Positions 1-24,967 of a DNA stretch of 64,000 nt are shown here, one piece after another. Every line of letters begins with the position of its first letter. Position 1 is the stretch's first letter. The stretch is from an uncultured archaeon. Lineage in GTDB: Archaea > Thermoproteota > EX4484-205 > JAAOZP01. The notes beneath the pieces were generated by a model that ran no database searches, had not been told where the DNA came from, and saw only the letters and a program-made list of their open reading frames with translations. The position numbers and the translations under genes are program-made. Location: contig CALIBN010000024.1 in assembly GCA_938045545.1 (NCBI GenBank), positions 1 to 64,000 on the forward strand. The letters run 5' to 3'.

Positions 1-147
1 AACAGACGGGCAGTATAAGACATTCCGACGATACTCGGATGGCACACTGATGGAATACGGATGCCACTCGGCCGCCTTTTTATATGTAGAAAGAGCGTTG
101 CAACGAAGTAGAACATTTCTACCCCCCAAACGTTAAAAATAAGGCTT
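1..147. promoter_or_regulatory. Bidirectional promoter block homologous to 21713-21862 (TATA-like box, 11-bp array, TATA-like box, CGTTGCAACG palindrome)
   Basis: Colinear similarity to 21713-21862: aacagacggg/aacagatggg, the array, gccgcctttt, cgttgcaacg (96-105 and 21811-21820), catttctacc, gttaaaa. Confidence 0.8.
27..70 (+). repeat. 4 x 11-bp tandem repeat array A (consensus about GATGDMAYWCG)
   Basis: Units gacgatactcg, gatggcacact, gatggaatacg, gatgccactcg read directly. Confidence 0.9.
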
Positions 148-167
148 AAAACTGTTTTTCAAGCAGG

Positions 168-1445
168 ATGGCTGAGGAGCAGTTCTTCCAGATGTTCCTA
201 AGCGGGTTGCGTGAATCAATAAGCAGGCTGAGCCCGCTAAGCTTCAACTCGTCGCCTTTCAAAGCTTCCTATCTTTCAAAATGGTACCCCTATGATGAAA
301 CGTGTGAGCCGGATGGGGCCGTGGCTGCTTGCGATGGGAGCATCAGCGAGTCAAGCTTCTCCGGAGGCCTGGTTGTCTGGGTTGCTAGATCCGTTGCACA
401 TGTTTACTTAAAGGAGGGAGAGCCGATCAGCCTTCTGGAGGCTGGGGTGGAAGCGGGCTATAGGCTTCAGGGCAGAGGGCTGTTTCTAAGGGCCCTGGAG
501 CTTAGAACGTTGAGGCTGGCTTTAGAAAAAGCCTCCCAGTTGTACGGGAGGGTCTTCGGCATTTTCGACGGAAGCTTCTACCTTACTTTTCTACACCACA
601 GGGACCGCTTAAGGGCTTTTTCAAGGGTTTTTGAGAATTACGTTAGGGAGCTGACTCTTCTCCTAAGGCTTGTCGACGAGGAAAAGATGGCCGTGGGTGT
701 TTCTAAGGACAGCGACATCAGTTATCTCAGGGCTAAGATAATGATTGATATTCTGCACAGCATGGATCCTGAGATTGCTGCTGAAGCAAGGGGGAGAAGC
801 ATAAGGAGGATTAGGGAAGTGTTGGGAGAGAAGGTTAAGGGACTGCCTCCGGGTTCAATGTTGAAAACCTGTTTTGAAGAGTTGGAGCAGGATTTTTCAG
901 ATGAAGGGGTTTACAGCGAGATAGCCCCCAGCCCAGGTTTCACGAAGCCTCTTCTTCTAGCGCCGCAGACGATTTTCCTAACCGGGGAGGCTAAGTCAAC
1001 CAGCTGGTGGGACTCAGGGTTCAGGGCGCGTCTAAAGCGTGATGAAGAGTTAAAAGGGGTTCTCGAGGCGCTTGACGACTATTTTTCAAACCCTCCGGTG
1101 GCGTTAACATACTGGATGCCGAGTATGGGCTCCAAAGTATACAGGGTCGACGTGCCTTCAAGCATCCTCGGTTACACTGGCCAGGGTGGAAGTCTTTCAG
1201 GAGACTTTTTCATAGGCGATTCGGGCGTTGAAAAGGCGAAAAAGATATTCTGCGTATTAAATAGGCTGCAGAAAGAGCCTCATGTAGTGCACCCTCTCGC
1301 TGAAGTGGACTCTATTGCCAGGCTCAGTAGGAGCATCTACAAGGATGCTTATGAGCCGGTTGTCGTCGAAGAGTTGAGGAGGAGAGGTTTTAAAGCAAGC
1401 CCTAGGAGGAGAAGCATTAGGGATGCTGTGTTGAGGGGATACTGA
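168..1445 (+). CDS. nurA: NurA-family 5'-3' nuclease
   Basis: ACDGS and IFDGS acidic motifs, GVSKDS; adjacent to herA-mre11-rad50. Confidence 0.8.
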   Translation: MAEEQFFQMFLSGLRESISRLSPLSFNSSPFKASYLSKWYPYDETCEPDGAVAACDGSISESSFSGGLVVWVARSVAHVYLKEGEPISLLEAGVEAGYRLQGRGLFLRALELRTLRLALEKASQLYGRVFGIFDGSFYLTFLHHRDRLRAFSRVFENYVRELTLLLRLVDEEKMAVGVSKDSDISYLRAKIMIDILHSMDPEIAAEARGRSIRRIREVLGEKVKGLPPGSMLKTCFEELEQDFSDEGVYSEIAPSPGFTKPLLLAPQTIFLTGEAKSTSWWDSGFRARLKRDEELKGVLEALDDYFSNPPVALTYWMPSMGSKVYRVDVPSSILGYTGQGGSLSGDFFIGDSGVEKAKKIFCVLNRLQKEPHVVHPLAEVDSIARLSRSIYKDAYEPVVVEELRRRGFKASPRRRSIRDAVLRGY

Positions 1446-3001
1446 TGGAGCCGCTTGGAAGAGTGATAGAGGAGTCCACCCCTTACGGTTTCGTTTTTAA
1501 AACAGGTATAGATAATCCAGTAGCCCTCCACGACTATGTTTTCGTCGAGGTGAATAATTTTGACGATGGAAGGCTGGAGAAGGTAAGGGTTTTAGCGGAG
1601 ATCGTCGGCCTGGCTTCTAAAAACCCCCTTGCGACGGAGAGGCTGGCTGCTGAGCAACAGGTGTCGCCATACTCGTACAAGCTGGTTTCAGCAGAGGTGG
1701 TGGGGTATCTTAAGGATGGGCGAATCATGAGGCCGAAGGTTGCTCCAGACCCTAACGCGCCTGTCTACAGGGCTGACGACGAGCTTCTTCAAACATTCTT
1801 CTCAGGAGTGAAGAGGAGGATACCCGTGTACGTAGCGATGCTCCTCAACAGGCCCATGGTTAAGGTACCGATACATCTTCAAGACCTTCAGTTTCATTTA
1901 GGAGTTTTCGCAGCTACTCGAGCGGGGAAATCATATTTCGCCGGCAGGCTGATCGAGGAGATTCTCGTGAACACGCCTTTCCCAGTAGTCGTCATAGATA
2001 TTCATGCGGACTACGTTATGATGGATAGGCTGGTTAAAGGCAACAGGCATGGCGAGTTCAACACCGTTGTCTACTATCCGCCTGGCGCTCCGAAAATAGG
2101 CGGGGTGACCGCTGAACAGAGGGAGCTCCAACTAAGCCCTGAGCAGCTGACATACGAGGCGATAATCGCGCTTCTTGGAACTACCCTGGGGGAGAGGCAG
2201 AAAATCGTTTTGAGAAACATCTTGAGGAGGCTTAAATCTGAGAAACGGCCTTTCGGTCTGGGGGACATAACCGACTTAATCAGGAACGAGCTGGAGGAAA
2301 CAGATAGCGATGGTAAGCCGGTGCTTAAGGGAGAGGGTAGAGCCAGGTATGAGAGTCTTCTCGCCCGGCTGGAAGACCTTGGGGAAGAGGTTTCGCTACC
2401 CCCGGCTGGGATGAGTATCTCCGAGCTGCTGGCTCCGAAGACGCTGAGCGTCATCTGTCTAAACGGGCTGCGTTCAAGGGTTCAAGACGCGTACGCCAGT
2501 ATAATTATAGACACCCTGTTCAGACACCAGGTTTCAAGTAAGAGCGACGAGAAGAACTTTACTCCCGTTTTCCTCTTCGTCGAGGAGGCTCACCGTATAG
2601 CTTCTGAGAAGAGCGGGGGTTATGCTGTCAGAACCATATCCACAGCTATAAGGGAGGGTGCCAAGTTCGGGCTCTTCATAACTCTGATAAGCCAGCGTCC
2701 GAGAAACATAGACCCAGACATATTGAGCAACGTCGGGAACTACGCGGTGATGAGAATAACCAACCAGCAGGATCAGAGCGTAATAGAGAATGCCAGTGAA
2801 AGCTTTTACCATAGGCTTATACAGGACCTTCCCGGGCTAAACCAGGGGGAGGCTGTGCTAGTCGGGCCTTTCGTACCTCTTCCGGCTCACGTGAGGACCC
2901 TGGACAGGAGGACGGTTCACCACGGTGTAACGCCTGAGCTCAGCAATATCATGGAAAGGATTAATGAGCAGCTTAGGCAGAGGGAAACGGGCAGGTGGTG
3001 A
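1445..3001 (+). CDS. herA: HerA helicase/translocase with N-terminal HAS barrel
   Basis: HAS-barrel-like N-terminus, Walker A AATRAGKS, IDIHADY, Walker B VEEAH, ISQRP. Confidence 0.85.
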   Translation: MEPLGRVIEESTPYGFVFKTGIDNPVALHDYVFVEVNNFDDGRLEKVRVLAEIVGLASKNPLATERLAAEQQVSPYSYKLVSAEVVGYLKDGRIMRPKVAPDPNAPVYRADDELLQTFFSGVKRRIPVYVAMLLNRPMVKVPIHLQDLQFHLGVFAATRAGKSYFAGRLIEEILVNTPFPVVVIDIHADYVMMDRLVKGNRHGEFNTVVYYPPGAPKIGGVTAEQRELQLSPEQLTYEAIIALLGTTLGERQKIVLRNILRRLKSEKRPFGLGDITDLIRNELEETDSDGKPVLKGEGRARYESLLARLEDLGEEVSLPPAGMSISELLAPKTLSVICLNGLRSRVQDAYASIIIDTLFRHQVSSKSDEKNFTPVFLFVEEAHRIASEKSGGYAVRTISTAIREGAKFGLFITLISQRPRNIDPDILSNVGNYAVMRITNQQDQSVIENASESFYHRLIQDLPGLNQGEAVLVGPFVPLPAHVRTLDRRTVHHGVTPELSNIMERINEQLRQRETGRW

Positions 3002-3007
3002 GACACG

Positions 3008-4267
3008 GTGAAGATAGGGGTTTTTGCCGACACCCACATAGGGAGAAACATACCTAGAGAAGTCGGCGAGCTTAGGAGAAACGCTTATCGCCACGCCTTC
3101 ACTCAGGCCATCGATATTTTCGTAAAGGAAAAAGTGGAATGCGCGATCCATTTGGGAGACCTTTTTGAGAAACGCAGCATGATGTCTGAGGACAGTGTTT
3201 TCGTCAAGGAGGAGTTGCAGCGCCTAGTCAACTCTATTCATGAGGAGCATGGTGGAGAAGTATCCGTATTCCTCATTAGGGGGAACCATGACGGTGCCCT
3301 TGACAACAATGCTCTGGATTTCGTTAAGCATCCTCTCGCAAAATATCTCAAGGTGGTGGGTGAGGCCGCTATCAGGGGGGAGGAGGAATCCTATTTTTTC
3401 AAAGGCATCCGGTTAATAGGACTACCTTACCATCCATACATATCGCGTGTTTTCAAGAACGTGAAAAACGTGATCCAGAGAGGGTTTAAGATGGAGGGAG
3501 AGATTAAGATTCTCGCGGTACACAACTTTATTCAGGGGTATCACGAGGTTCCTCCAGGAGTCCCATCGCATAACTGTCTTACACTTAGGGATTTTGACGA
3601 GCTTGGGGCCGATATGGTTTTAGCCGGCCACTATCATGGAAAGGTCAACCCGATGGAGAGTAACGGGACGCTTTTCCTAACGCCTGGCGCGACTGAGGCA
3701 GTCGACCTGTCTGACGAAGGCCCCTTCGGCGTCTACGTGCTGGACGGGGGACAAGTAAGGTTCCAGCCGTTAAAACCTCTGCATGAAATACGCAATGTCG
3801 AAGTGGATTCAAAAGGCGCTGTGAAACCCTGCGAATGGTTCGTCGAACAATCTGTTCGCGAAATAGATGCTTACTCCTCCGATCTTCAGGCTAGAGGTGT
3901 TGATGGGATGTTGCGCCTAGTTTTAAACGGGTACACCGAGAATGATCCCCGTAACATAGACATGGCTCTCCGGAAGGAGATCGCGAAGAAAACAGTCTCA
4001 ACAAGGTTGCTGCACGTTGGCTTGGTTAACCGTGTTGAAGACGTTAAGCAGAGAGCAGTCTTCTCCAGGCTTGGCAGCGGACTAGACTATGCGATGGAGA
4101 TTTTGAAATCGCTCGGGGAAACGTCGGGGGAAGCGATGAGGATCGTGGAGGAGCTGAGTATTACTCTCGATGAAAAGGCGAGTCAGAGAACGGGGCTTCT
4201 CACAGACTCAGATAGGAGCCGCTTCGTAAAACGCTGGGTTCAGATTTTAGAGAAGGCAGGTGGCTGA
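3008..4267 (+). CDS. mre11: Mre11/SbcD metallophosphoesterase nuclease
   Basis: Motifs DTHIG, GDLFE, GNHD, GHYH. Confidence 0.85.
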   Translation: MKIGVFADTHIGRNIPREVGELRRNAYRHAFTQAIDIFVKEKVECAIHLGDLFEKRSMMSEDSVFVKEELQRLVNSIHEEHGGEVSVFLIRGNHDGALDNNALDFVKHPLAKYLKVVGEAAIRGEEESYFFKGIRLIGLPYHPYISRVFKNVKNVIQRGFKMEGEIKILAVHNFIQGYHEVPPGVPSHNCLTLRDFDELGADMVLAGHYHGKVNPMESNGTLFLTPGATEAVDLSDEGPFGVYVLDGGQVRFQPLKPLHEIRNVEVDSKGAVKPCEWFVEQSVREIDAYSSDLQARGVDGMLRLVLNGYTENDPRNIDMALRKEIAKKTVSTRLLHVGLVNRVEDVKQRAVFSRLGSGLDYAMEILKSLGETSGEAMRIVEELSITLDEKASQRTGLLTDSDRSRFVKRWVQILEKAGG

Positions 4268-6260
4268 AATGAGTGGATTAATCGAAACGCTTAGGCTTAG
4301 AAACCTGGAGCGTTACAGGAATGTTCAGCTAGACTTCTCAGCTGGGCTTAACCTCATAAAAGGTAGGAATTCGACTGGTAAAACTACTCTGCTCAACGCA
4401 TTGACGTTCGCGCTTTTCGGCGAGGTGCCTGAGGCTAGGCCGAAGCTGCTGGTTTCAAAGCTGCCTGGCTCAGGGGAGATGAGCGTTTACGTAAGGTTCA
4501 GAAGCCCGGTGAGCGGCAAGGTTGTTGAAGTTGAGAGAAGGGGCAGTTTAGACAGGAACGGGGATTACAGGACATTGGAACGAATTCTCCGGATTGACGG
4601 TAAAAATGCGTCCTTCAGTAGCGAGGAGGACTTGAGGAGCATGATCACTGGACTTCTCGGGATGAGTTTAAGGAAGTTTATCAACCTGGTCTATGTTAGG
4701 CAAGGTAGGTTAACCGAGATACTGGAGCCTCAGAGGGAACAAATGGACTCAGTGATGGGAATAACGCTGTTAAGAGAGCTGCGTGAACAGCTGGACGGGG
4801 CGCGGAGAGAGCTGGAGAGGTTTAACGGGAAGGATGCTGCAACCGAGATTCAGAGTCTTGAGGAACGGGTGCCGGAGCTCGATTCAAGCCTGAGACAGAT
4901 CGACGAGGACATTTGCCGGTTGAATAGGGAGGTTCAGGAGCTTGAAAACCTTTTGAAGAAGGCGGAATCAAGCGAGTTAACAGAGCTTCTCAACTGTATC
5001 AAGAAGAGGGAGGAGGTTGAGGAGGAGCTGAAGAAGATTTCTTCAAGGAGTCGAGAGCTTCTGGAGCAAGCCGGTGTCTCTTCGATTGAAAAGTTGGAGG
5101 AGAAAATTAGTTCGAGTGAAAAGGAGCTGGAGGCACTGAAAGCAGCGAGAAATAGTTTGAGGAAGGAGCTTGATGCCTCCATGGAGGAATGGTTAAGCGT
5201 GAAGAGCCTTGTTGAAAACCTTGCGAAACAAGTAAGGGAGCGCGAGTCTCTTGCTGGAAGCGGGGCTTCTAAATGCCCCACGTGCGGCCAAGACCTGCAA
5301 CCCGCTGTGATCCAGAGAATTCTGGAGGAGGATCGCAGCTCATTAGCCAGGGCTAGCCTCGAGGAGGCTGAGGCGAGAAAGGTTTACGAGGTGAGAAGCG
5401 TCGAGCTTCAAAACCTTGTTGAAAAAATAAACGCTGTTGAAGGCGAATGCTCAAGGATGAAGACCCTGAGACACCGTCTGAAAGAATATTTGGACTCTGC
5501 TGAAACCCTCGTGAAAACAAGGGGTGAAACCATCGCTAAGGTAAAAGAGATACTAAAAGTCCTCGACCTGCCTTTCACCCCGGAGGATCCTGAACTGAAG
5601 CTGAAGCTGGCCCAGCAGCTCCCCCTTCAGCCGGAGGAGTTAGCCAGAAGAAGGGGTGAGCTTGCTGAGAAGAAGAATGTTTTAGAGAGGAAGATGAGTA
5701 TGAGGGCAGATATCAGCAGGAAACTGGAGGACTACAGTAGGCTGCTCAACCAGCTTAAAAGAAGGATGGAGAAGGCTGGTCTCGCACACAGGTTCTCCCA
5801 GCTCTTCGACCAGGCTGTTGAAACCAGGAGGAGAGAACTGATAAAACGCATAGAGTTCAGAGCATTAGAGTACTATAGGGCTATGACGGATCAGCATGTC
5901 TACGACGCTATAATCATAAACCCGGAGGACTATTCTGTTTCAGTGCATCCGAAAGGGTTGACAGACCCTATTCCCGCAACCAGAGTCGGAGGAGGACACC
6001 AGACTATTCTGGCTCTAGCCATACGTCTCGCCCTCCTCGATGCTCTTGGGCTGAATTCACTGCTGATACTTGACGAGCCCACTTACGGTGTTGACTCGGA
6101 AAACCTTCCGCAGGTTGCAAGCTACATAGGGGAAGCCTCTAAGCAACTCTCTCAAATGATACTTGTAACCCATCACAATATTTGCGAGGAAGAGGCTTCA
6201 AACATTATAGAAGTAAGTGTTCAAGAAGACGGTTCGTCTAAAGCAGAGATTAAAACATAG
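4260..6260 (+). CDS. rad50: Rad50/SbcC SMC-like ATPase (short, 666 aa)
   Basis: Walker A GRNSTGKT, Q-loop YVRQG, coiled coil with CPTC zinc hook, LILDEPT, VTH; ATG at 4269 is an alternative start. Confidence 0.85.
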   Translation: MAEMSGLIETLRLRNLERYRNVQLDFSAGLNLIKGRNSTGKTTLLNALTFALFGEVPEARPKLLVSKLPGSGEMSVYVRFRSPVSGKVVEVERRGSLDRNGDYRTLERILRIDGKNASFSSEEDLRSMITGLLGMSLRKFINLVYVRQGRLTEILEPQREQMDSVMGITLLRELREQLDGARRELERFNGKDAATEIQSLEERVPELDSSLRQIDEDICRLNREVQELENLLKKAESSELTELLNCIKKREEVEEELKKISSRSRELLEQAGVSSIEKLEEKISSSEKELEALKAARNSLRKELDASMEEWLSVKSLVENLAKQVRERESLAGSGASKCPTCGQDLQPAVIQRILEEDRSSLARASLEEAEARKVYEVRSVELQNLVEKINAVEGECSRMKTLRHRLKEYLDSAETLVKTRGETIAKVKEILKVLDLPFTPEDPELKLKLAQQLPLQPEELARRRGELAEKKNVLERKMSMRADISRKLEDYSRLLNQLKRRMEKAGLAHRFSQLFDQAVETRRRELIKRIEFRALEYYRAMTDQHVYDAIIINPEDYSVSVHPKGLTDPIPATRVGGGHQTILALAIRLALLDALGLNSLLILDEPTYGVDSENLPQVASYIGEASKQLSQMILVTHHNICEEEASNIIEVSVQEDGSSKAEIKT

Positions 6261-12717: not shown

Positions 12718-14690
12718 CTATGTTTGAACTACGATTGGTATCGCCATATTCATCCTCGGCAGTAATGCTATTGCTTCACCCATTTTCAGCTCCTGAATTT
12801 TTAAGGCTTGCTCCTCGTTAAGGTGCATCGTATCCGCGATCTTTTCAACATCACTAGAGTACTGCAACCTAAGGCAAATTATAGTCCCGCACAATCCCAA
12901 GACATCTCTCGACACCGTTAATGGTCTCTGATCTATAAGCCAAACAGACTCTCCGAACTTCCTCATCTCCCTGAGCATCTTCTCCACTATGGTCTCCTGA
13001 CCCTCAAACCTAGCTGGGGCGATGTTATGGGCTTCCTCGCAGACTATAACGTGCGGCAAACCCCTGTTGGGCTTCTTCCTTCTATAATCGTAAACCCGCT
13101 TCAGCATCATCCACGTAAATATGTTTGCATCCCTATCCGTATCCAAGTCGCTGAGATCAAAGATGACCATATTTGAGAGAAGCCTCTCCATCATCCCTTC
13201 CCGTTCACCGATTGCGTCAAAAACTTTCCCAAAACTTCCTTGAGTGAGCTCGCTCAACCTTCCTACTAGCGAGAACAGCTTGTCCCTAGCTTTTCCTGAA
13301 GGAAGGAACATCAGGTCTTCAGAGTCAACGCTCCTCTCGAGGGATTCCACGAAGTCTACGAAGTCTGGGCGTTTTTTCCTCTTTAACATACTTCAAATAC
13401 ATCCTCCTGAAAACGTGGGAAACCAATGGCCCGAACTCATCGGGCCAGGCCATCGCGAAGACCTCGCCCAGGATCTTAGCATGGCCCTCTGGGTCACCGT
13501 GGTGCTCCAAGAGGTTTATCTTGGCGTTATTCGCATCGAGGACCAAGGCGTCATCGAATTCATCAACGTATTCCCCATGCCTGTCGAAGACCATCGCAAA
13601 ACCTCCTAGCTCCCTGTATCTCCTCAGAAGTGCCTTTGTTAGAGTGCTCTTCCCTGAGCCCGGGACGCCGAATATCGCCATGTGAAGAGGCAGATCTTCT
13701 ATGCCTATCTTAACCTCAATCCTCTTTCTCATAGATTCGTATATCCTACGAGTATTCCATTCCTCTCCAGCCCAGCTGGGTCAAAGGCCCCGAAGTCAAC
13801 GATCCTCTTGGGCGTGTAAGATGCGCTCGGCGTTATGGGCTCCGGGAAGCTTACGAATGACGATAGCTCATTCGCTAGTTAGGTGGAGTCTTTTAGAATC
13901 CACGATTCCCCTGGCGAGAATGCTCCTCGCTACCCCACTTAGACCCAGCCAACCGGCCTCTTCCAGCTTAACTCCGTACGATGAGGAGAAGGCCGCTTTA
14001 ACTGCCTCCACATAATTCCTCTGCTCAAGATAGGCTTGTTTAGGGCTTCTTGTTGAAGGACCTATCACGACGATAATGGGAGAGCACGTCCAACACCCAA
14101 CATCGTTGCTAATCCTTTCGTATCTCTGACGAAGCCTCTCGAGCTCTGTGGATTTGTCCAAGTCATACCCTATGAGCTCTCCCCTGCTGTTATAGAGCCC
14201 CTTCTCCCTCAGCTTTCTGTAGGCTTTCGAGTACCGTAAGGAAATGCTCCTCTTCTTGGCCCAGAGGCTTAACGCGTGGAAAACTCCCTTGCAAGACTTG
14301 GACGCAGAATCTCGGTGAGCAACCGGATTCTGCAGAGGATCTTAAAGCCTTTTCAAGCGCATCTTCTGGAATGTTGAGCTCATCTTCCTTTAATTTCATG
14401 GATAGGAAAGAGGCTGCGGAGACCCTTCGGCCTTTAAGCAGGATCAAGACATTCCTATGCTTTGAGATCGGTAGGCCTCCCAAGGGCCACAGGGCGGCCT
14501 CGGGGGAAGCCTCAAGAGCCTCTAGCTCAGCGCCCGGAAAGCCGGCGAGTACGCTGGCCCTCATCCTCGAGAATATTTTACTGAGCCCTTCAATCGACCG
14601 GGATGCTGCTGAGAGCCTCGCCTCATAGTTAAACGGCTCGTAGGATACCGTGAACATACCTTCAAAGCCGGTTGCGGAGAGGCCATGCAT
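12718..14690 (-). pseudogene. Frameshifted, 5'-truncated paralog of the 731-aa HerA/VirB4-like ATPase
   Basis: ORFs 14190-14690, 13868-14161, 13325-13732 and 12718-13389 align consecutively with 22772-24967 (GLSATGFEG, CWTCSPII, GVPGSGKS, CEEAHNIAP). Confidence 0.9.
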
Positions 14691-14756
14691 GGCTTTTTCG
14701 CTAGGTACTGGCGCTAGCCAGGGCTATCGCTCCAAGCTCCCGGGAGGTGATGTGGA

Positions 14757-15837
14757 ATGTCTTCTCCGGAACCAGAGAATAGAGGTAACTATATCATAGC
14801 AAGGAAGACTATAAAGGCGAAGATACTTGAGCTGAAGAGGGAGGAAGAGGAACTCCTTAGGCGCGAGTACGAGAACTTCCAGCGCTATCTACAGGGCGAG
14901 AAAACAGTTCCGCTATATGCTGCTACTAAGCAACAAGCAGATAGACTCCTGAAGGAGCTGAACGGGAAGCTGAGGGAAAGGGAGTATCCACTAATACTGA
15001 GGAACGACACCTACCGAATTGAAATCGAGCAAAGCCCCTACTTGCTTAAGATACCCGTCTACGGTGTCTGGGGAGGGATAAGGGTTCCGATTAGGACCCA
15101 CAACCCCATAACTAGCGATATGAGATGTAAGGAAGCTAAGGTAATCCACAAAGATAACGAGTGGTTCGTCTACATCTGCATCGAGAAGGAGGTTGAGAAG
15201 AGGATTCCGAGGAACATTTGGCCATAGATATGGGGATAAGGTGGATCGCTACGACAGTCAATTCCAGCAACCCGGTCCCAAAGTTTTACGGCAGGGAGCT
15301 GAGGAGGGTCAGGGGACGCTTCTTTTACCTAAGAAGAAGCCTTGCATTGAAGAAGGCATACGGAGCAATAAAGAAGATTGGTGATAGGGAGCGAAGGATG
15401 GTGAACGATATCCTGCATAAGATAAGCAGGAGGATGGTGGACGAGGCCTTGGAGACGGATGCGATGATCGCCATGGGGAACTTGAAGGGAATTAGGGAAA
15501 ATGATAAGGGCAAAGGTTCAACAGGAAACTCAATGGATTTCCATACTGGAAGCTCAGCAAGTTCATAGAGTATAAGGCGAGGTGGCTTGGAATAAAAGTG
15601 ATCAAAATAAACGAGAGGAACACTTCGAAGCTTTGCCATAGATGCGGAAAGAAAGGAATCCGCGATGGAAGCCTCTTCAAATGCCAGAGCTGCAACTACT
15701 CATGCGACGCAGACTACAACGGAGCAATGAACATAATGAAGCGGGCCATGCGCTATATGCGAATGGCAGGGGCTGAGTTGACACAGCCCATAACCCGGCA
15801 GGATGAACCCACAGGGCGACGAACCGGGAACCCCTAG
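14757..15837 (+). pseudogene. tnpB: Frameshifted TnpB
   Basis: Three ORF pieces match 20495-21538; 1-nt deletions near 15215 and 15512; stop TAG changed to CAG. Confidence 0.9.
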
Positions 15838-15851
15838 CATGGGGATGTCAA
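15790..15851 (+). mobile_element. IS200/IS605-type right end / omegaRNA 3' scaffold (copy 1)
   Basis: ggatgaacccacagggcgacgaaccgggaacccctagcatggggatgtca, near-identical to copy 2; similarity stops at TCA. Confidence 0.8.
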
Positions 15852-15853: not shown

Positions 15854-17548
15854 CTAGCGCCGAGCCCCGTAGTCTTCACTGGTTTCTTTAGTAACCAGGT
15901 ACTGCAGGTCGGTCTCAGGATCCTTAACCGGGATGATCCTTATTCCGCCGACCCTGCTCACCTTCTTCACGTTCTCCGGGTATTTCCCCCCGTGAAGGTG
16001 GAAGATTTTAACCCTGTGTCCTCTTTTAACGATCTGCTCTAGACAGGGAAGCGCCTCCTCAATGTTCTGCCAGCCGCAATCCGTTATAATGTTTATCAAA
16101 ACCCTGTTCTCGCTCTCGGAGACGAGCCTCATGATCTCGTTTAGAGGAAGTATCGTCATTCCCCCGAAGTAGAGCGCTAAGGACAATTCCTTCTCAAGCG
16201 TCGAGCCCTGCCATTCTACAGAGTAGTAGTCTGTTGAGAAGGCTATTGAAGCTGTTTTCCCACCTATTCTCTCCACGGAAAGCAGGTTGATGAAGGCTGA
16301 GGTTGCAGCATTATGGATAACCTCCTGCATGCTTCTGCTGGCGTCTAAAACTATTAGGCTTGAGGGCACGTTGCTTACCGTCATGCTGCTCCCCTTCCCC
16401 TTAACCTCGCTCTGCCATTTCACCGTGTTTATTTCAATCCGCAGCCTTCCCTCGTCGAGGCTGGCCTCCAGATCAAGGTCTTCAACCTCGTCCTCAATGT
16501 TCCAATCCATGGGGTAGCTGGATATTGCTAGATTCGGCTCAGGCCTCCTGCCCTCCTCAAGATATACGAGCATCGTCCTCCTCGCCCTAGCCCTATACCA
16601 GCATACTTTCCAGAAGAGCTCTTCAACCATCTCGTTAGTCAACCCGGTGTACGGCTTGCTTACGCTCGTAGGCAGCCTGGGCTCCTGCCCGCCCTCAGGC
16701 TTAGCGCGGCGTATTCCCCCGGCTTCTCCCCTTCTGGTCTTTTTCCCACCCGCCGCTTTACCGCTTTTCCTAATCGTCTTCTTAATCTCCTCAAGCTCAG
16801 AGTTCTTCAGCCTCGATTTAACCCAGTACTCGTAAAACCTTCTCGCCTCCTCGCTGTTTTTTATTCCCCCAAGCACCTCGTTAATCTTCTCAATAGTGTT
16901 CCTGCTCAAGTCCTCCCTTAAGGGGATGCTCGCGCCCGGGCCGGCAAGCTGCCTCGGTATTTCGGCTTTAACCCTGTTTAAAGAGAGGATGAGCGCCACC
17001 AGCCTCACTTTACTAAACCAGTTTCTTTCAGACCTCATAACCATGCTGATTTGCCTAGCCACGTTTTCAACGTTATAGTCGTATTCCCTATGGCTCTTTC
17101 TCAAGATGTGCCTGTAGGCTGCCTGAATATACCTTCCAACCCCCCTCTGCGAAGTGTTTAGAAACTGTTCGACGTGATAAGGTGTTTCCCCGAACCTGCT
17201 TAAAAGGTAGAAGCAGTCAACGTTCAAGTCGGCGAACAGCAAGACTGAGAAATACGCGGTGCCCCAGTCCTTGCACGCACCGTAAGCCTCCTTCACCAGC
17301 TCGTAAGCCGTCCTAATGTCATACGGGCAGTAGTGCAGATGAGCAATCTCATGCCTGATGACGGACCTAAGATATTTTTCACCGTCAACCTTCTTCGGAA
17401 CCGCCTCCGGAGAAATATGTACTTTTGAATCCACCACGAAAAAGGGTTTGCCACCTTCACCGTCATGCTTCACTTCCAGTTCGCACGGTGGGAAATAGAG
17501 TTCACTCCTAACCTGCGCGAAAATCCTTCTTACTTCTTCATCGTCCAT
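15854..17548 (-). CDS. VWA-domain protein with N-terminal HExxH metallopeptidase-like domain (MoxR partner)
   Basis: RHEIAH; MIDAS DASRS and ITD; downstream of MoxR ATPase. Confidence 0.75.
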   Translation of the reverse strand: MDDEEVRRIFAQVRSELYFPPCELEVKHDGEGGKPFFVVDSKVHISPEAVPKKVDGEKYLRSVIRHEIAHLHYCPYDIRTAYELVKEAYGACKDWGTAYFSVLLFADLNVDCFYLLSRFGETPYHVEQFLNTSQRGVGRYIQAAYRHILRKSHREYDYNVENVARQISMVMRSERNWFSKVRLVALILSLNRVKAEIPRQLAGPGASIPLREDLSRNTIEKINEVLGGIKNSEEARRFYEYWVKSRLKNSELEEIKKTIRKSGKAAGGKKTRRGEAGGIRRAKPEGGQEPRLPTSVSKPYTGLTNEMVEELFWKVCWYRARARRTMLVYLEEGRRPEPNLAISSYPMDWNIEDEVEDLDLEASLDEGRLRIEINTVKWQSEVKGKGSSMTVSNVPSSLIVLDASRSMQEVIHNAATSAFINLLSVERIGGKTASIAFSTDYYSVEWQGSTLEKELSLALYFGGMTILPLNEIMRLVSESENRVLINIITDCGWQNIEEALPCLEQIVKRGHRVKIFHLHGGKYPENVKKVSRVGGIRIIPVKDPETDLQYLVTKETSEDYGARR

Positions 17549-17550
17549 CT

Positions 17551-18771
17551 CTATTCGAGCCCGAGGCCCACCTTCAAGGTTTCCTCCCGGCTGATCCTGC
17601 CTTCCCTAACCCATTTCTCCTCTAGGGAAAACAGCTCCTCGGCGAAAACATTATCCTCAGCAGCTATTTCTTTAGCGGTCCTATATAGGCCTGGGCTGAA
17701 ACCGTTGTAAAGCTCGTTCAGGATGAACCATTGTTTCCTGGATTCTCGTTCAAACATTCTCTCCCTCTCCCTTTCAAGCAACTCGCTGATTTCCTTCAAG
17801 GGTTTCTCAGGGTTTAGGAAGCCTGTCCTATGTATGAGAACCCATTTAGCCATCTCGATCACATCCTTCTCCTCAACCTTTCCCTCAAGCCACTTCTTAG
17901 CCTTGACGAGTTGAAGCAGGATGAGGGTTGCCCTCTCGCTCGGAGGCTCCTTAACCCTGCTGCAGACGAACCTGGTGAAATGGCAGCCCTCGCACAGGAC
18001 TGGAAGGGGGACGCTGCTATGCTCCTTACCCCTGACGCACACTTGAAAGTCTCTGACGAGCGTGTTTATGAAGCCGATTAAACCTGGTTCAACCCCGGTT
18101 TCCTCAACCTCCCTCCTTATCTCCGCCAGGTCCCCCGGCTCCATGACGCGCGGCATGGATTTTATCAAATCGTAGCCGTAATCATTGTTCAACTCTTGGA
18201 GAGCGAATTTTTGGCTCACCGTGAGCGAACTCAGGTAGAGAGCAATGTCAAACCTGTCGTAGAACGGCGGAGGCTGTATGAAAGTCGTCACGTCACCCGG
18301 GTTCTCGTTAGCTATGAGAGTATAGTCTTCAACAGTATACTTCTGCCCGTAGGCCCATACTTCTCCGAACTGCATCAAATGATGAATGTTCGCAGTAGTG
18401 TAGGGGTTAAGCCTGTTCACCTCATCTATCCCCTTGCCCTGGGCCCGTACGAACTTAGCCCAGAGGACTTTCTCCCTGCCCTTCTTCTCAAGCGAAGGAA
18501 TATGGAGTCTTCCAACAACCTCCCCTCTCTTCACCTCGGAGGCTCCTGAAATGACGACAAACTCGTCTCCGAAGAGGCCTTTCAAAACAAGCAGCATCAG
18601 CGTGGACTTGCCTGTTCCCCTGGGCGCCCTTATCAGCGTTGTGGACTTCCTGTGAAGCAGGTTCAGCAAAAGTATTGAGATTACCTCCTCGTTGCCGATG
18701 AACCTTTTAGAAAGCTCTTCTCTCAGCCTTTCCACGAGAGGCCTCTTGCTACTCACGCTAACCATCCCCAT
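17551..18771 (-). CDS. MoxR-family AAA+ ATPase
   Basis: FIGNEEV, APRGTGKS, IDEVNR, ANENP, YDRF, SERA. Confidence 0.8.
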   Translation of the reverse strand: MGMVSVSSKRPLVERLREELSKRFIGNEEVISILLLNLLHRKSTTLIRAPRGTGKSTLMLLVLKGLFGDEFVVISGASEVKRGEVVGRLHIPSLEKKGREKVLWAKFVRAQGKGIDEVNRLNPYTTANIHHLMQFGEVWAYGQKYTVEDYTLIANENPGDVTTFIQPPPFYDRFDIALYLSSLTVSQKFALQELNNDYGYDLIKSMPRVMEPGDLAEIRREVEETGVEPGLIGFINTLVRDFQVCVRGKEHSSVPLPVLCEGCHFTRFVCSRVKEPPSERATLILLQLVKAKKWLEGKVEEKDVIEMAKWVLIHRTGFLNPEKPLKEISELLERERERMFERESRKQWFILNELYNGFSPGLYRTAKEIAAEDNVFAEELFSLEEKWVREGRISREETLKVGLGLE

Positions 18772-19180: not shown

Positions 19181-20449
19181 ATGAGAACATCCAGAATACC
19201 GGGCTTCTACAATTTAAGCGTGGCGGAGAGGCTGAGCAGGATAGTAGAGTACGCCGGGCTGACGGAGGAGGAGGCTAAACTCCTCTCGAAAGAGGGCAAT
19301 CTAAGCCTAGAGACCGCTGACAGAATGGTTGAAAACGTGATTGGGACAATGGCTTACCCCTTCTCTGTTGCACTCAACTTCCTCATAGATGGTAAAGAGT
19401 ATATCGTCCCCATGGTTATAGAGGAAACCTCCGTCGTAGCGGCCGCCAGCAACGCTGCTAAAATGACTAGGGCGAAAGGAGGGATATTCACGGACGCCAC
19501 AGAGCCCATCATGATAGGGCAGGTGCAACTGACTGGAGTAACCAACCCCCTCACGGCTAAAATGAAGATCCTTGAACACAGGGACGAAATATTGAAGCTT
19601 GCCAACGATCAGGATCCTGTTCTCGTAAAGCTCGGCGGAGGCGCTAGAGATGTTGAAGTTAGAGTGGTGGATAGTAACGTGGGCCCAATGGTGATAACGC
19701 ATCTCCTAGTTGACGTTAGGGATGCGATGGGGGCGAACGCTGTCAACACTATGTGCGAAGCCGTAGCACCCCTGATAGAGAAAATAACCGGTGGAAAAGT
19801 ATATTTGAGGATAATATCGAACCTTGCCGATAGAAGACTCGTAAGGGCTAGAGCGACGGTTGCCAAAGAGGAGGTCGGCGGCGAGGAGGGTGTCGACGCA
19901 ATAGTGAAAGCATGGGCTTTCGCAGCAAGCGACCCCTATAGATGCTCAACACATAATAAGGGGATTATGAACGGTGTCATTGCAGTTGCTCTGGCTACTG
20001 GGCAGGACCATCGAGCTATAGAGGCGGGTGCCCACGCTTTCGCTGCAAGGACGGGCAAATACCTGCCTTTAACCGTCTGGGAAAAGGATGAGAATGGCGA
20101 TCTCGCTGGAACGCTGGAGATGCCCATGGCGGTTGGCTTAATAGGCGGGGCAACTAAAACTCACCCTATAGCGAGGATCGCGATTAAAATCCTTGGCGTT
20201 AAAACCGCGACGGAATTGGCGAGAGTGATGGGCGCCGTAGGTCTAGCTCAGAATCTTGCAGCCCTTAGAGCGTTGGCGCTCGAGGGGATTCAAGCAGGCC
20301 ATATGAGGCTTCACGCGCGTAACATAGCGATTATGGCGGGTGCCACGGGAGACCTGATTGAGAAGGTCGCTGAGCAGATGATTAAGGAAAGGAAGATAAG
20401 GTTCGATAGGGCCCAGGAGCTCGTCAAGGAATTCACGGAGAAGAAGTGA
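19181..20449 (+). CDS. mvaA: HMG-CoA reductase, class II (MvaA type)
   Basis: SRIPGFY, ENVIG, EETSVVAAAS, DAMGAN, THNKGIMNG, GIQAGHMRLH. Confidence 0.95.
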   Translation: MRTSRIPGFYNLSVAERLSRIVEYAGLTEEEAKLLSKEGNLSLETADRMVENVIGTMAYPFSVALNFLIDGKEYIVPMVIEETSVVAAASNAAKMTRAKGGIFTDATEPIMIGQVQLTGVTNPLTAKMKILEHRDEILKLANDQDPVLVKLGGGARDVEVRVVDSNVGPMVITHLLVDVRDAMGANAVNTMCEAVAPLIEKITGGKVYLRIISNLADRRLVRARATVAKEEVGGEEGVDAIVKAWAFAASDPYRCSTHNKGIMNGVIAVALATGQDHRAIEAGAHAFAARTGKYLPLTVWEKDENGDLAGTLEMPMAVGLIGGATKTHPIARIAIKILGVKTATELARVMGAVGLAQNLAALRALALEGIQAGHMRLHARNIAIMAGATGDLIEKVAEQMIKERKIRFDRAQELVKEFTEKK

Positions 20450-20560
20450 CATCCCCATGCTAGGGTTCCCGGTTCGTCGCCCTGTGGGTTCATCCTACCG
20501 GGTTATGGGCTGTGTCAACTCAGCCCCTGCCATCCACATGTAGCGGATGGCTCGCTTCAT
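20426..20560 (-). ncRNA. Predicted TnpB omegaRNA (reRNA) 3' part plus guide extending antisense into the mvaA 3' end
   Basis: TnpB guide RNAs are known to derive from the right end plus flank; stem CCC-N3-GGG kept across copies with a changed loop; 5' boundary unknown. Confidence 0.55.
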
Positions 20561-21538
20561 TATGTTCATCGCTCCGTTGTAGTCTGCGTTGCATGAGTAG
20601 TTGCAGCTCTGGCATTTGAAGAGGCTTCCTTTGCGAGTTCCTCTATTTCCGCATTTATGGCATAGCTTCGAAGTGTTCTTCTCATTTACTTTTATTACTT
20701 TGATCCCGAGCCATCTAGCCTTGTACTCTATGAGCTTGCTGAGCTTGCGATAGGGGAATCCATTTAGTTTCCTGTTGAACCTCTTGCCCCTATCGCCATC
20801 CCTGATCCCCTTTAAGTTCCCCATTGCGATCATCGCATCCGTCTCCAAGGCCTCGTCCACTATCCTCCTGCTTATCTTATGCAGAATATCGTTCACCATC
20901 CTTCTTTCCCTATCTCCAATTTTCTTGATCGCGCCGTATGCCCTCTTCATGGCGAGGCTTCTTCTTAGGTAAAAGAAGCGTCCCCTGACCCTCCTCAGCT
21001 CCCTGCCGTAAAACTTTGGGACCGGGTTGCTGGAATTGACTGTCGTAGCGACCCACCTTATCCCCATATCTATGGCCAAGACATTCTTCGGGATCCTCTT
21101 CTCAACTTTCTTCTCAACGCAAATGTGGATGAACCACTCGTTGCCCCTGCGAATCACCTTGGCCTCCTTAAGCCCCATATCGCCCGTTATGGGCTCATGA
21201 GTCCTAATCGGAACCCTTATCCCTCCCCAAACGCCGTAGACGGGTATCTTAAGCAAGTAGGGGCTTTGCTCGATTTCAATTCGGTAGGTGTCGTTCCTCA
21301 GCATTAGCGGATACTCCCCCTCCTTCAGCTTCCCGTTCAGCCTCCTCAGAAACCTCTCCGCGGCTTGCTTCGTGGCAGAGTATACCATAGCGGATTTCTC
21401 TCCCCTCAGGTAGCGCTGGAAGCTCTCGTACTCGCGCCTAAGGAGTTCCTCTTCCTCCCTCTTAAGCTCAAGTATCTTCGCCTTTATAGTCTTCCTAGCT
21501 GTAACATAGTTACTTTTCTCTGATTCTGAAAAAGACAT
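20495..21538 (-). CDS. tnpB: TnpB RNA-guided endonuclease (347 aa, rearranged RuvC-II type)
   Basis: LAIDMG (RuvC-I), AMGNLKGIR, NEKNTSKLCHKC and CQSC zinc finger, NADYNGAMNI (RuvC-III). Confidence 0.95.
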   Translation of the reverse strand: MSFSESEKSNYVTARKTIKAKILELKREEEELLRREYESFQRYLRGEKSAMVYSATKQAAERFLRRLNGKLKEGEYPLMLRNDTYRIEIEQSPYLLKIPVYGVWGGIRVPIRTHEPITGDMGLKEAKVIRRGNEWFIHICVEKKVEKRIPKNVLAIDMGIRWVATTVNSSNPVPKFYGRELRRVRGRFFYLRRSLAMKRAYGAIKKIGDRERRMVNDILHKISRRIVDEALETDAMIAMGNLKGIRDGDRGKRFNRKLNGFPYRKLSKLIEYKARWLGIKVIKVNEKNTSKLCHKCGNRGTRKGSLFKCQSCNYSCNADYNGAMNIMKRAIRYMWMAGAELTQPITR

Positions 21539-21712
21539 TTAGCACCACCTCCTGGGAGCCGGAGCGATAGCCCTGGCTAACGCTGATACTTAGCGAAAGC
21601 CACGCTGGGCCTATACCCGATTAAAAGCGGGTTCCAGCCACTACAAAGCAGGCTAAGAGGTTCTTTCTAAAACTCCCTGTTTCATGCTCCTCCGCAGCTC
21701 CCAATTATGTTA

Positions 21713-21862
21713 AACAGATGGGAGGTATATAGATATTCTGATGGCATATGGATGTCACTCGGATGGAACACGGATGACACACGGCCGCCTTTTTAAATAT
21801 GCGGAGGGGGCGTTGCAACGGAGTAAAGCATTTCTACCTCTCCGAATGTTAAAAGTAGGCAA
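21713..21862. promoter_or_regulatory. Bidirectional promoter block for tnpB (-) and the membrane wHTH gene (+)
   Basis: TATA-like ctatatac (- strand, 21725-21732) and ttttaaat (+, about 21791-21798) flank the array; palindrome cgttgcaacg at 21811-21820. Confidence 0.65.
21740..21783 (+). repeat. 4 x 11-bp tandem repeat array B
   Basis: gatggcatatg, gatgtcactcg, gatggaacacg, gatgacacacg. Confidence 0.9.
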
Positions 21863-22663
21863 ATGGGGATGCTGGGACACGTAGTGAGGCTGTTTTCCGC
21901 TGTAATCATTGGACTGCTGTTTTCATACCTCGTTTATCGGGCCTTGACCACTCTAGATAGTTTCCTAGCATCGATCCTCTCTCTCGGCCTCATGATGAGC
22001 ATGCCCCTCACGCTAATCCTGGTTTTCTACAACAGGCTTCGCTGGGGAGCATTTTTCTTCGTGGCCGTCTGGCTCCTCTACGCCTCAGCGGTATGGCTCT
22101 ACATGCTGGCCGGCTTTTTCACAACAGTCTTTCATGGACAGGCTTGGATACCCGTTTTCATATTAAGCATCGGCGGAATAGCCTTTCTCTTAGTTGTTCT
22201 CAGGAGGAGAGGGATAGGCCTCCCGCAGGTATTTCAAGGGAAAGGGGAGAGCTTGAAAGGTGTTAAAGAGATTCAGGAGGTTGCTGAGGAGCCCGTAGAA
22301 GGGGTCGTTGAGCCCGAGCCCCAAGAGGAGCCGGATTTCTCCCGAACCATGGAACTCCTGGATGAGGCCCACTGCAGGATCCTTGAAACCCTATTGGAGT
22401 CGGGCAGCCCGTATTCGAAGAAGGAGTTAGCCAAGGCTATTGGGGCAACATACAGAAGGGTTCTTAGGGCGGTCGAGGAGCTTGAGAAGCTTGGGCTCGT
22501 CGAGGTTAAGGAAGCACCGAGGAGTGCGAGGGGCTCCTCCGTAGTTCATGCCGTCAAGCTATCCCCAGCTGTATCTAGGAGGAGCGAGCTGGCCAAGGAG
22601 ATGGTTAAGAGGAGGATGGAGGAGCTCGGGGCGGTTAAGGGCAGGGCTAAAACAAGCGCATAA
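21863..22663 (+). CDS. Membrane-anchored winged-helix protein (about 4 N-terminal TM helices, acidic linker, C-terminal wHTH)
   Basis: Four hydrophobic segments in residues 1-115; E/P-rich linker; ILETL..SKKELAKAIGATYRRVLRAVEELEKLGLVE wHTH pattern. Confidence 0.8.
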   Translation: MGMLGHVVRLFSAVIIGLLFSYLVYRALTTLDSFLASILSLGLMMSMPLTLILVFYNRLRWGAFFFVAVWLLYASAVWLYMLAGFFTTVFHGQAWIPVFILSIGGIAFLLVVLRRRGIGLPQVFQGKGESLKGVKEIQEVAEEPVEGVVEPEPQEEPDFSRTMELLDEAHCRILETLLESGSPYSKKELAKAIGATYRRVLRAVEELEKLGLVEVKEAPRSARGSSVVHAVKLSPAVSRRSELAKEMVKRRMEELGAVKGRAKTSA

Positions 22664-22677
22664 AACCCATCGTTTGC

Positions 22678-22732
22678 CGTGTGTTATCCGTATGACATCC
22701 GTGTTCCATCTGAGTGCCATCCGTGTTACATC
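22678..22732 (-). repeat. 5 x 11-bp tandem repeat array C, inverted relative to A and B
   Basis: Minus-strand units gatgtaacacg, gatggcactca, gatggaacacg, gatgtcatacg, gataacacacg. Confidence 0.9.
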
Positions 22733-22771
22733 GGGATGCTTATGAATGGGGATATCGATGATTGAACGGAA

Positions 22772-24967
22772 TTGATCGAGGAGTTCAGAAGGGTAGTCTA
22801 CGAGAGGGTTGAGGTGAGCAGCTTTAGGAAGCGCGTTGAGCAAGCCCAGCCTAAGCGAGTTAAGGCCTTCAAAATCCTCGGAAGTACGGTTGTCCTAGGT
22901 AAAGACGTTTTCAGCGTTTCGGGGAGGCTTGTTTCAGAGATAAGGCTCAGGTCGGCTGATTACGAGGAGAATAAATCCGAGGTTAAGATGCTTCAAGGCC
23001 TTTCGGCAACGGGCTTCGAGGGAATGTTCACGATATCCTATGAGCCCTTCAACTATGAGGTGAGGTTCTCAATAACCTCGAAATCCCCAAGGGAGCTTAG
23101 ACTCATGGCTTCAAGGCTTAAGGCCTCAATACTGGCAAGCAGTCCCGGAGCTGAGCTCGAATCGCTTAGAGCTTCCATCGATAACGTGCTATGGCCCCTA
23201 GGAGGCTTCCCGGTCTCCAGGCGGGAAAACAGGTTGATCCTGCTTAGGGGTAAGGAAGTCTCAGCAGCATCATTCCTGTTAATTAAGCTGAAAGAGGAGA
23301 TGATTAGCCTTCTCGAGGATGGCCTTGAGAACGCCTTAAGGTCCTCTGCGGAATCAGGATGTTCGTTCAGGTTCTGCGTCCCGGTCAAATCATGCAGAGG
23401 ATTCGCCCACCTTCTAAACACATGGGTAAAGAAGAAGGATATTCTATCCAGATATTCCAAGGCCTACAGGGAGCTTAGGGAGAATGGGCTTTTTAACAGC
23501 AGGGGCGAGCTCATAGGCGTTGACCTAAGTAAGTCAACTAAGCTTGAGCTTCTCCGCTCTCAGTACGAGAGGCTTAACGGACAAACGGGATGTTGGACAT
23601 GCTCTCCGATAATAGTAGTGATAGGAACTCCCGAGAGGGACCCTAGGCAGGCTTGTGAAAAACAGAGGGAGTACGTTGAAGCTGTCAAGGCATCTTTCTC
23701 ATCATCCTACAGGGTTAAGATCGAGGAGGCTGGGTGGCTGAACCTAGGGGAGGTAGCGAGAAGCATACTCGTCAGGGGGATAACGAGCTTGAACAAACTT
23801 CATGTAACCGGCGATGAGTTATCTTGTTTCATAAGCTTTCCCAAGCCAATAACGCCAAGCATATCCTACATGCCGAAGAAGATCGTTGAATTCGGAGCCT
23901 TCGACCCGGCTGAGCTCAGGAGGAATGGTATACTCCTAGGATACTATGAATCCATGAGAAAGAGGTTTGGGGTCAGAATAGGGATAGAAGACCTTCCCCT
24001 ACATTTAGCTATATTCGGCGTCCCGGGCTCAGGGAAGAGCACTCTAACAAAGGCACTTCTGAGGAGATACAGGGAGCTAGGAGGTTTTGCGATGGTCTTC
24101 GACAGGCATGGAGAGTACGTTGACGAATTCGATAATGCCCTAGTCCTCAATACGGATAATGCCAGGATAAACCTCCTAGACCACCACGGTGACCCGGAGG
24201 GCCATGCTAAGATCCTGGGCGAGGTCTTCGCGATGGCTTGGCCGGATGAGTTCGGGCCGTTGGTTTCACACGTTTTCAGGAAGATGTACCTGAAGTACAT
24301 TAAAGGAGTCAGCCACCCCGATTTCCTGGAATTCGTAGAATTCCTCGAGAAGGACGCCAACTCGGAGGACCTGACGTTCCTTCGCTCCGGAAAGGCTAGG
24401 GATAAGCTGTTCTCGCTAGTGGGGAGGCTTAGCGAGCTAGCCCAGGGGAGCATTGGAAAGGTGTTCGACACGGTTGGGGGGCAAGGGGGCGTGATGGAGA
24501 GGCTGCTCTCGGGCATGGTCGTCTTCGATTTAAGCGGCATGGATACGGATAGGGATGCGAACATACTTACATGGTTGATGCTGAAGCGAATCTACGATTA
24601 TAGAAGGAAGAAGCCCAACAGGGGTTTGCCGCACGTTATAGTCTGCGAGGAGGCTCATAACATCGCTCCAGCTAGGTTTGAGGGCCAGGAGACCATAGTT
24701 GAGAAGATGCTTAAGGAGATGAGGAAGTTCGGCGAGTCTGTTTGGCTTATAGATCAGAGACCATTAACGGTGTCGAGGGATGTCTTGGGATTATGTGGGA
24801 CCATAGTCTGCCTGAGGCTACAATACTCGAGCGACGTTGAGAAGACCGGGGACACGATGCACCTGAACGAAGAGCAGAGGCTGAGGCTGCAGGAACTCGA
24901 GTTGGGGGAGGCGATAGCATTGCTGCCGAGAATGAAGACTGCGATACCAATCACCGTCCAGCTGTAG
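22772..24967 (+). CDS. HerA/VirB4/FtsK-superfamily ATPase (DUF87-like) with an uncharacterised N-terminal region of about 390 aa
   Basis: HLAIFGVPGSGKS, FDRHGEY, VCEEAH, EMRKFG, IDQRP, GEAI. Confidence 0.85.
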   Translation: MIEEFRRVVYERVEVSSFRKRVEQAQPKRVKAFKILGSTVVLGKDVFSVSGRLVSEIRLRSADYEENKSEVKMLQGLSATGFEGMFTISYEPFNYEVRFSITSKSPRELRLMASRLKASILASSPGAELESLRASIDNVLWPLGGFPVSRRENRLILLRGKEVSAASFLLIKLKEEMISLLEDGLENALRSSAESGCSFRFCVPVKSCRGFAHLLNTWVKKKDILSRYSKAYRELRENGLFNSRGELIGVDLSKSTKLELLRSQYERLNGQTGCWTCSPIIVVIGTPERDPRQACEKQREYVEAVKASFSSSYRVKIEEAGWLNLGEVARSILVRGITSLNKLHVTGDELSCFISFPKPITPSISYMPKKIVEFGAFDPAELRRNGILLGYYESMRKRFGVRIGIEDLPLHLAIFGVPGSGKSTLTKALLRRYRELGGFAMVFDRHGEYVDEFDNALVLNTDNARINLLDHHGDPEGHAKILGEVFAMAWPDEFGPLVSHVFRKMYLKYIKGVSHPDFLEFVEFLEKDANSEDLTFLRSGKARDKLFSLVGRLSELAQGSIGKVFDTVGGQGGVMERLLSGMVVFDLSGMDTDRDANILTWLMLKRIYDYRRKKPNRGLPHVIVCEEAHNIAPARFEGQETIVEKMLKEMRKFGESVWLIDQRPLTVSRDVLGLCGTIVCLRLQYSSDVEKTGDTMHLNEEQRLRLQELELGEAIALLPRMKTAIPITVQL

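Follow-up and report, generated by a model that had tools for sequence, protein, structure and literature searches.

Remnants of insertion sequences can create hybrid promoters of neighbouring genes. Terminal-only remnants of IS605-type elements, together with PATEs, are described from Haloquadratum and other haloarchaea in the consulted part of one account (Dyall-Smith et al. 2011, PMC3119063). TldRs, which are nuclease-dead transcription factors derived from TnpB, are reported for bacteria and phages in a preprint, according to which one catalytic residue can be relocated, so that at least two changes are required (Wiegand et al., 10.1101/2023.11.30.569447). The locus reported here lies at the left edge of a window of 64,000 nt, C24:1-64000, in which base 1 is the start of a contig of the archaeal genome G000 (51 contigs, 2.03 Mb, 92% complete). 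A block of about 140 nt, homologous to part of a mobile-looking unit found elsewhere in the window, precedes an operon for DNA end resection. This block is most probably the fossil of a decayed element in an ancestral host spacer, and the operon a host operon in its old place rather than cargo.

The operon resembles the archaeal NurA-HerA-Mre11-Rad50 operon in having four tightly packed genes with the expected domains, and differs from it in the order nurA-herA-mre11-rad50 and in a Rad50 as short as 666 aa. The scores of all four proteins fall far short of the NCBIfam equivalog cut-offs, which indicates a divergent lineage of the resection machinery. The coordinates of the operon, of the block and of the parent unit are listed in Table 1.

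Table 1. Features of the nurA upstream region, the operon and the parent unit (positions in the window).
Feature	Position	Strand	Remarks
Element-derived block start	1..24	+	Alignment of all copies; C29 end sequence
Array, 4.5 units of 11 nt	25..76	+	CCGACGATACT, CGGATGGCACA, CTGATGGAATA, CGGATGCCACT, CGGCCGCC
TATA-like box 1, TTTTTATATG	77..86	+	Counterpart at 21790-21800
Perfect palindrome, CGTTGCAACG	96..105	.	Counterpart at 21811-21820
Junction zone and nurA core TATA, TTAAAAATAAGGC	133..145	+	Element ends, native promoter begins
Native nurA leader	146..167	+	Conserved in insert-free relatives
nurA	168..1445	+	Pfam NurA, E 3e-07; orthologues in 15/16 same-genus genomes
herA	1445..3001	+	Pfam DUF87/HerA; NCBIfam HerA models below cut-off
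mre11	3008..4267	+	Metallophos; Mre11 models below cut-off
rad50-like, short (666 aa)	4260..6260	+	SMC_N/AAA_23; Rad50 models below cut-off
Decayed inverted second unit copy	12733..15850	-	tnpB and ATPase gene frameshifted; block and wHTH gene deleted
Only intact tnpB of G000	20447..21538 (ORF 20495-21538)	-	RE terminus (T)TGACA at 20447
LE / tnpB leader	21539..21712	-	Conserved core ends ...CGCAGCTCCC
Reference block copy (array, TATA1, palindrome, TATA2)	21713..21862	+	Upstream of the wHTH gene
Membrane-anchored winged-helix (wHTH) gene	21863..22663	+	Single copy in G000
Second array, inverted	22675..22735	-	Between the wHTH and ATPase genes
HerA/FtsK-superfamily ATPase gene	22772..24967	+	Best named match CedD, 106.7 bits versus cut-off 600

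A search of the genome with window positions 1-167 matched seven places, the query itself among them. Positions 1-141 matched 21713-21857 with 77% identity (E 1.7e-23), C1:1-145 and C29:71936-72076 matched the block at 99% and 100%, respectively, and three shorter matches covered only the first ~93 nt of the query. A MAFFT alignment of the two copies gave a mean column identity of 81%. The sequence-only reading had described positions 1-147 as colinear with 21713-21862. These values show that the colinearity is real and well above chance level, the array, a TATA-like box and the palindrome being common to both copies, but homology by descent stops at ~135-145. Of the two TATA-like boxes that it had taken to be shared, the first is; the second, at 133-142, consists largely of the native TATA of nurA, since relatives that do not have the block read AATAATAAGGCTTAAAAC... 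at that place.

The arrays at 25-76 and about 21735-21789 are built of an 11-nt unit with a consensus of about C-G-GATG-N-M-A-Y-W, and a pattern of two such units occurs at five sites in the window versus none expected from 100 shuffles. A TATA-like GTATAAG at 13-19 faces tnpB in the full copies. Box 1 is kept in every array-bearing copy, pointing to the wHTH gene in the full element and to nurA here. The palindrome CGTTGCAACG is perfect only in the copies of G000 and in the nurA-locus copy of the sister species G006. The full element and the second remnant of G006 have it in broken form, which shows that it is not conserved across the family.

The sequence to the left of the window was recovered at the end of contig C29, into which the block start continues leftward through LE-like and RE-like remnants. 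This contig end contains a 768-aa ORF that encodes a GH3 glycosidase (Pfam), then ~210 nt, and then the block. The ~210 nt consist of RE-like and LE-like sequence from which the tnpB ORF is missing: C29:71718-71864 matches window positions 20443-20590 on the RE side, and C29:71868-72076 matches 21645-21857, comprising the LE side and the block. As in terminal-only derivatives, the remnant at nurA retains both end regions of the tnpB element while the ORF is deleted. The GH3 stop codon TGA (C29:71722-71724) is supplied by the TGA with which the element's terminal TGACA begins. The last GH3 sense codon is AAT, in place of the AAA of insert-free relatives. A single contig of G006 carries the GH3 gene, the insert and nurA together with 20 kb of sequence further upstream, and this uninterrupted contig independently confirms the join of C29 to C24. 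A search for element sequence just left of the window, as had been suggested, was thus rewarded with both kinds of end-like sequence, but they come without tnpB and the neighbour is the GH3 gene.

Orthologues of nurA were found in 15 of 16 same-genus genomes, and the loci returned for G000 and 11 relatives, 12 in total, were read upstream of nurA; the matching genomes G003, G014, G013 and G020 were left out of this reading. The GH3 gene stands directly upstream of nurA without insert in eight of the 12 loci. In six of them (G009, G016, G007, G012, G002 and G008), its 3′ end is followed by a spacer of ~75 nt ending ...GAGAAAGAATAATAAGGCTTA... and then by nurA, and in the other two (G004 and G005) by a longer A/T-rich spacer. 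A different gene precedes nurA in G015 and G011. An insert of ~350 nt was found only in G000 and G006, whose NurA proteins are 98% identical, and the arrangement is restricted to these two sister species among the 17 genomes of the genus that were searched. An empty site was present in a 940-nt Logan contig of run X6, which belongs to another study; relative to the G006 locus, this contig skips 352 nt, has 42 other letters instead, and joins at the base equivalent to the junction zone. Reading the nurA upstream regions of relatives, a comparison proposed by the sequence-only reading, therefore places the operon at its ancestral position, with the insert in two of the 12 loci.

Native sequence resumes in the window at ~135-138, and the point of transition can be placed within 133-145. 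The insert-free relatives read the 11-mer AATAATAAGGC at the junction; G006 keeps AATAATAAGGC exactly, and G000 reads AAAAATAAGGC at that place. A box of the AATAATAAGG type lies ~30 nt before the ATG in six relatives, is kept in G006 and has one base changed in G000, so that an A/T-rich box upstream of nurA is conserved in orthologous loci, as would be expected of an archaeal promoter. Since native sequence begins at ~135-138, nurA keeps its own TATA (133-142) and the distance of ~30 nt to the ATG at 168. The core promoter is nevertheless not untouched, because a conserved GAGAAAG purine tract and the rest of the ~42-nt native spacer were replaced by CCCCAAACG and the block. All six short-spacer relatives have the GAGAAAG tract, and the four more distant ones have similar tracts. 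At the equivalent spot the full element of G006 reads ...AAAAAATAAGGCAAATGG, and the two parent sequences consequently have up to 8 nt in common at the junction. Archaeal TATA boxes are centred about 26 nt before the transcript start. From the spacing of the box at 133-142, the nurA transcript would start at about 163-167 and the mRNA would be leaderless or nearly so.

The history of the locus can be proposed as follows. Window positions 1 to about 137 would form the right-hand portion of a fossil, ~350 nt long, that derives from a repeated unit of Brockarchaeota and lies between the GH3 stop codon and the native TATA of nurA-herA-mre11-rad50. The fossil appears to keep the fused RE-like and LE-like ends as well as the promoter block of the wHTH gene; all that followed from the start of this gene has presumably been lost. 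A single insertion probably took place before G000 and G006, two sister archaea of hot springs, split. A later deletion would then have joined the second TATA region of the element to the similar native TATA of nurA, removing about 42 nt of native spacer with the GAGAAAG tract; we infer such a deletion between the two A/T boxes as the simplest route to the present structure. To judge by the spacing, the TATA at 133-142, which precedes the ATG by about 30 nt, probably still drives the transcription of nurA. The element would contribute only the DNA upstream of this TATA, with a regulatory effect that may be modest or nil. The outcome resembles hybrid promoters made by insertion sequences in that mobile DNA takes the place of the sequence immediately before a host core promoter element, and differs from them in that the promoter is of the archaeal BRE/TATA type and the native TATA is retained.

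The divergence of the insert between the two sister species was compared with that of the neighbouring genes. Over its 352 nt, the insert shows about 92% identity, with several indels, while four-fold sites are 94.5% identical in nurA (10/181 differ) and 93.5% identical in the GH3 tail (9/139 differ). By this comparison, the insert appears neutral-like, diverging at a roughly neutral rate. The 33-nt stretch TTTTTATATGTAGAAAGAGCGTTGCAACGAAGT, which covers TATA1 to the palindrome, does not differ between the two species, and the GATG cores of the nurA-locus array are kept in both. Five of six array differences were counted by hand at variable unit positions, a bias that is not significant (hand-calculated p about 0.07). 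A weak constraint on the insert is possible.

The full unit from which the fossil would derive occupies window positions 20447-24967 and consists of tnpB on the minus strand, the array and TATA block, and the genes for a membrane wHTH protein and a HerA-like ATPase. Its first array is flanked by TATA1, which faces the wHTH gene, and by a TATA-like box on the minus strand that faces tnpB. G000 has one intact copy of each gene of the unit and its other copies are frameshifted; the wHTH gene is intact in both G000 and G006. The full-length copies encode TnpB, with matches to Pfam PF07282 (E 9e-23) and PF01385, that is, the OrfB_IS605 and Zn-ribbon/TNB domains of the family, and the protein scores 168.8 bits against the NCBIfam guided_TnpB model (cut-off 100). 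This is the sole tnpB family in G000, and its other tnpB-like matches lie away from nurA. The order tnpB (minus strand), wHTH, ATPase recurs at four related loci (L051, L052, L053 and L054), and at L055 the wHTH and ATPase genes occur with no tnpB match. The flanks of the full unit, which include genes for HMG-CoA reductase and a SIMPL-family protein, showed no synteny in five related loci, so that the parent unit is conserved across several Brockarchaeota genomes at non-syntenic places. An empty site of the full unit was not found in four relatives, and a direct repeat flanking it did not rise above shuffled sequences (137/300 reached the score).

The wHTH gene is bracketed by inverted 11-nt arrays, at 21735-21789 and 22675-22735 in the window, at 1580-1660 and 2505-2565 in L035, and at 570-630 and 1480-1530 in L036. 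In G007 (L052) the wHTH protein is 46% identical and both arrays are of a GATCGTA type, still forming nearly perfect inverted repeats, and in G011 the wHTH cassette, which the arrays enclose, has the opposite orientation with respect to the ATPase gene and LE. The joint switch of the arrays in the former and the flipped cassette in the latter suggest that the wHTH protein and the arrays co-evolved and that at least one inversion occurred between arrays. On the RE side, the alignment shows short palindromes near the terminus, for example CGAC-CGAA-GTCG and CCCC-ATGCTA-GGGG. A broad fuzzy search for RE termini was noisy but gave a few clear extra copies. An Rfam search of window 20200-22000 with E up to 1 returned one weak, irrelevant match (TLS-PK2, E 0.39), and PADLOC returned generic Cas12f, HerA and Csa3-type wHTH similarities only, with no named defence system. 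The two unit copies of the window lie inverted around 15854-20449, a segment with a 564-aa ORF that has no Pfam match, an AAA_5 ATPase gene and the HMG-CoA reductase gene. In G006 the end of the HMG-CoA reductase gene is ~650 nt from the equivalent of window position 12583, so this segment is arranged differently there. Window 26116-26624 holds a further decayed fragment, with an RE-like terminus directly after the SIMPL-family gene and an ATPase-like stretch that is 59% identical to residues 136-274.

The catalytic residues of TnpB were located by alignment to solved Cas12f and TnpB chains. D157 and D319 are present, and G240 occupies the position of the RuvC-II Glu, aligning to the Glu that we count as residue 324 of chain 7wju_A. 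We take this chain to be AsCas12f, with catalytic residues D225, E324 and D401. A Gly at the canonical Glu position (MGNL or MGDL in place of MEDL) was found in six of six related sequences, which makes it uncertain that the protein is a double-strand-break nuclease, as the sequence-only reading had presumed; TnpB may be inactive, or the Glu may have been relocated. Judging from the part of the TldR preprint drawn on here (10.1101/2023.11.30.569447), the protein is like TldRs as a TnpB homologue that is stably associated with non-transposase genes and has a changed RuvC motif, and unlike them in that only one of the three catalytic residues is altered and the Zn-ribbon and C-terminus are intact. 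Two or more deteriorated DED residues were not found, the Glu position being the only one altered in the six sequences. In addition, no second place in the genome matches the guide-like 16 nt beside the RE of the intact tnpB at fewer than two mismatches, and hence no promoter target of the TldR kind was recognized.

A second, fuller remnant is present in G000 between contigs C17 and C1 (C1:1-571 together with the reverse complement of C17:1-73). C17:1-73 is identical to C29:71772-71844. In G006, contig C1 is contiguous across the orthologue of G000 C1:1-1300 (94% identity), and its upstream flank is orthologous to the reverse complement of G000 C17:2-1412. This remnant contains RE, LE, the block, 55 nt of the wHTH gene, the final ~130 nt of the ATPase gene and a further ~190 nt. 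The site is empty in G009, and a 13-nt direct repeat, an untypical feature for IS200/IS605, flanks the 752-nt insert of G006 (L026 1280-2031). The C17/C1 block of G000 is 100% identical to the nurA-locus block of the same genome and 89% identical to the nurA-locus block of G006, but only 82% identical to its own positional orthologue in G006. Identity within G000 in the face of such divergence from the orthologue suggests that gene conversion has acted on the pair of copies in G000. Downstream of the second remnant, and in the same orientation, is a gene for an HhH-GPD (EndoIII-like) glycosylase (Pfam). Among the five array-bearing remnants, the two in front of nurA and of this glycosylase gene are upstream and co-oriented, and three face the 3′ ends of convergent ORFs, which indicates that remnants are not generally placed as promoters. 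That both downstream genes act in repair is a coincidence worth a note, not evidence.

As far as the consulted part of their description goes (PMC3119063), PATEs are a close parallel to these remnants: a tnpB element of the IS1341 type lost its core and its end regions were fused, many short copies are scattered, most full copies are pseudogenes, and palindromes lie near the terminus at the RE end. The remnants differ from PATEs in that the one at nurA also holds about 140 nt of the adjoining wHTH promoter block, that no Y1 transposase was found, and that one remnant has the 13-nt flanking direct repeat. The search for Y1 TnpA (PF01797) gave no matches in G000, which is 92% complete, and the control was positive in six of 14 reference genomes. 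The presence of the wHTH promoter block inside the remnant indicates that the parent was the larger tnpB-wHTH-ATPase unit and not a plain insertion sequence.

Other explanations of the nurA upstream region were considered. The block sits on a fork of the assembly graph at a contig end, where a chimeric path through a repeat could have joined it to nurA. Exactly 141 nt are common to many contig ends of G000, the signature of a k=141 graph assembly, and the last 141 nt of C29 (71936-72076) are identical to C24:1-141 and to C1:1-141, which places the block on the fork. The break is accounted for by the two near-identical block copies, the second of them between C17 and C1. The Logan depth of run X1, 33.3 on the GH3 side, 60 on a 305-nt repeat piece with LE and block, and 32.7 next to nurA, is what two copies in each genome would give, although this run is possibly the source sample and hence not independent. 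An artefact is very improbable nonetheless: the same junction occurs in the independent assembly of the other species, G006, a Logan contig of 10,379 nt from run X3 crosses from the array into nurA with zero differences (on the G006 locus), and a 141-mer graph requires reads that hold 140 nt of the block together with the nurA leader. Another proposal is that the operon is carried as cargo by a second full copy of the element, whose tnpB would be found on the minus strand immediately to the left of the window. Apart from the block itself, which is colinear with that of the full unit, nothing speaks for it. No tnpB lies between the GH3 gene and the block in G000 or G006, the tnpB-like matches of the genome are all elsewhere, and the GH3 and nurA genes adjoin without the element in eight of 12 loci, with an empty-site contig in addition. 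This part of the sequence-only reading is accordingly refuted, its probability being close to nil.

Its other proposal, a host operon that came under the control of the element, holds structurally, inasmuch as element sequence lies upstream of the nurA TATA. For actual regulatory capture, the array would be the operator of the wHTH protein, and the nurA operon of G000 and G006 would be co-regulated with the element genes, activated or repressed through a hybrid TATA or by read-through from TATA1. Several observations would suit this idea: arrays flank the wHTH gene as inverted repeats and change jointly with its protein (46% identity and GATCGTA-type units in G007/L052), the wHTH gene is intact in both species, the GATG cores at nurA are kept in both, the native upstream tract has been replaced by element sequence, and the second remnant is upstream of and co-oriented with the repair glycosylase gene. 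Against them stand the native TATA and its spacing to the ATG, which are kept, the about neutral divergence of the insert, a palindrome that is not conserved in the family, the three other array-bearing remnants that face convergent 3′ ends, and the restriction of the arrangement to two sister species among the 17 genus genomes searched. On balance we regard capture as unlikely. A wider version of the idea, which appears improbable, is that the arrays are wHTH operators of an undescribed mobile three-gene module of Brockarchaeota and that its fossils have wired host DNA-repair genes into the regulon of the module. The module would comprise a TnpB with a non-canonical RuvC site, a wHTH protein with co-evolving inverted arrays, and a CedD/HerA-like DNA-translocating ATPase. 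If this were true, the regulon would couple RNA-guided DNA targeting with end resection.

With a decayed fossil in a host spacer as the preferred reading, the apparent tie of an RNA-guided nuclease element to the end-resection operon would be a fossil insertion in an intergenic spacer. The locus would then be a natural experiment in which close archaea differ only in the DNA upstream of the nurA TATA, and which may serve to probe the role of this upstream tract.
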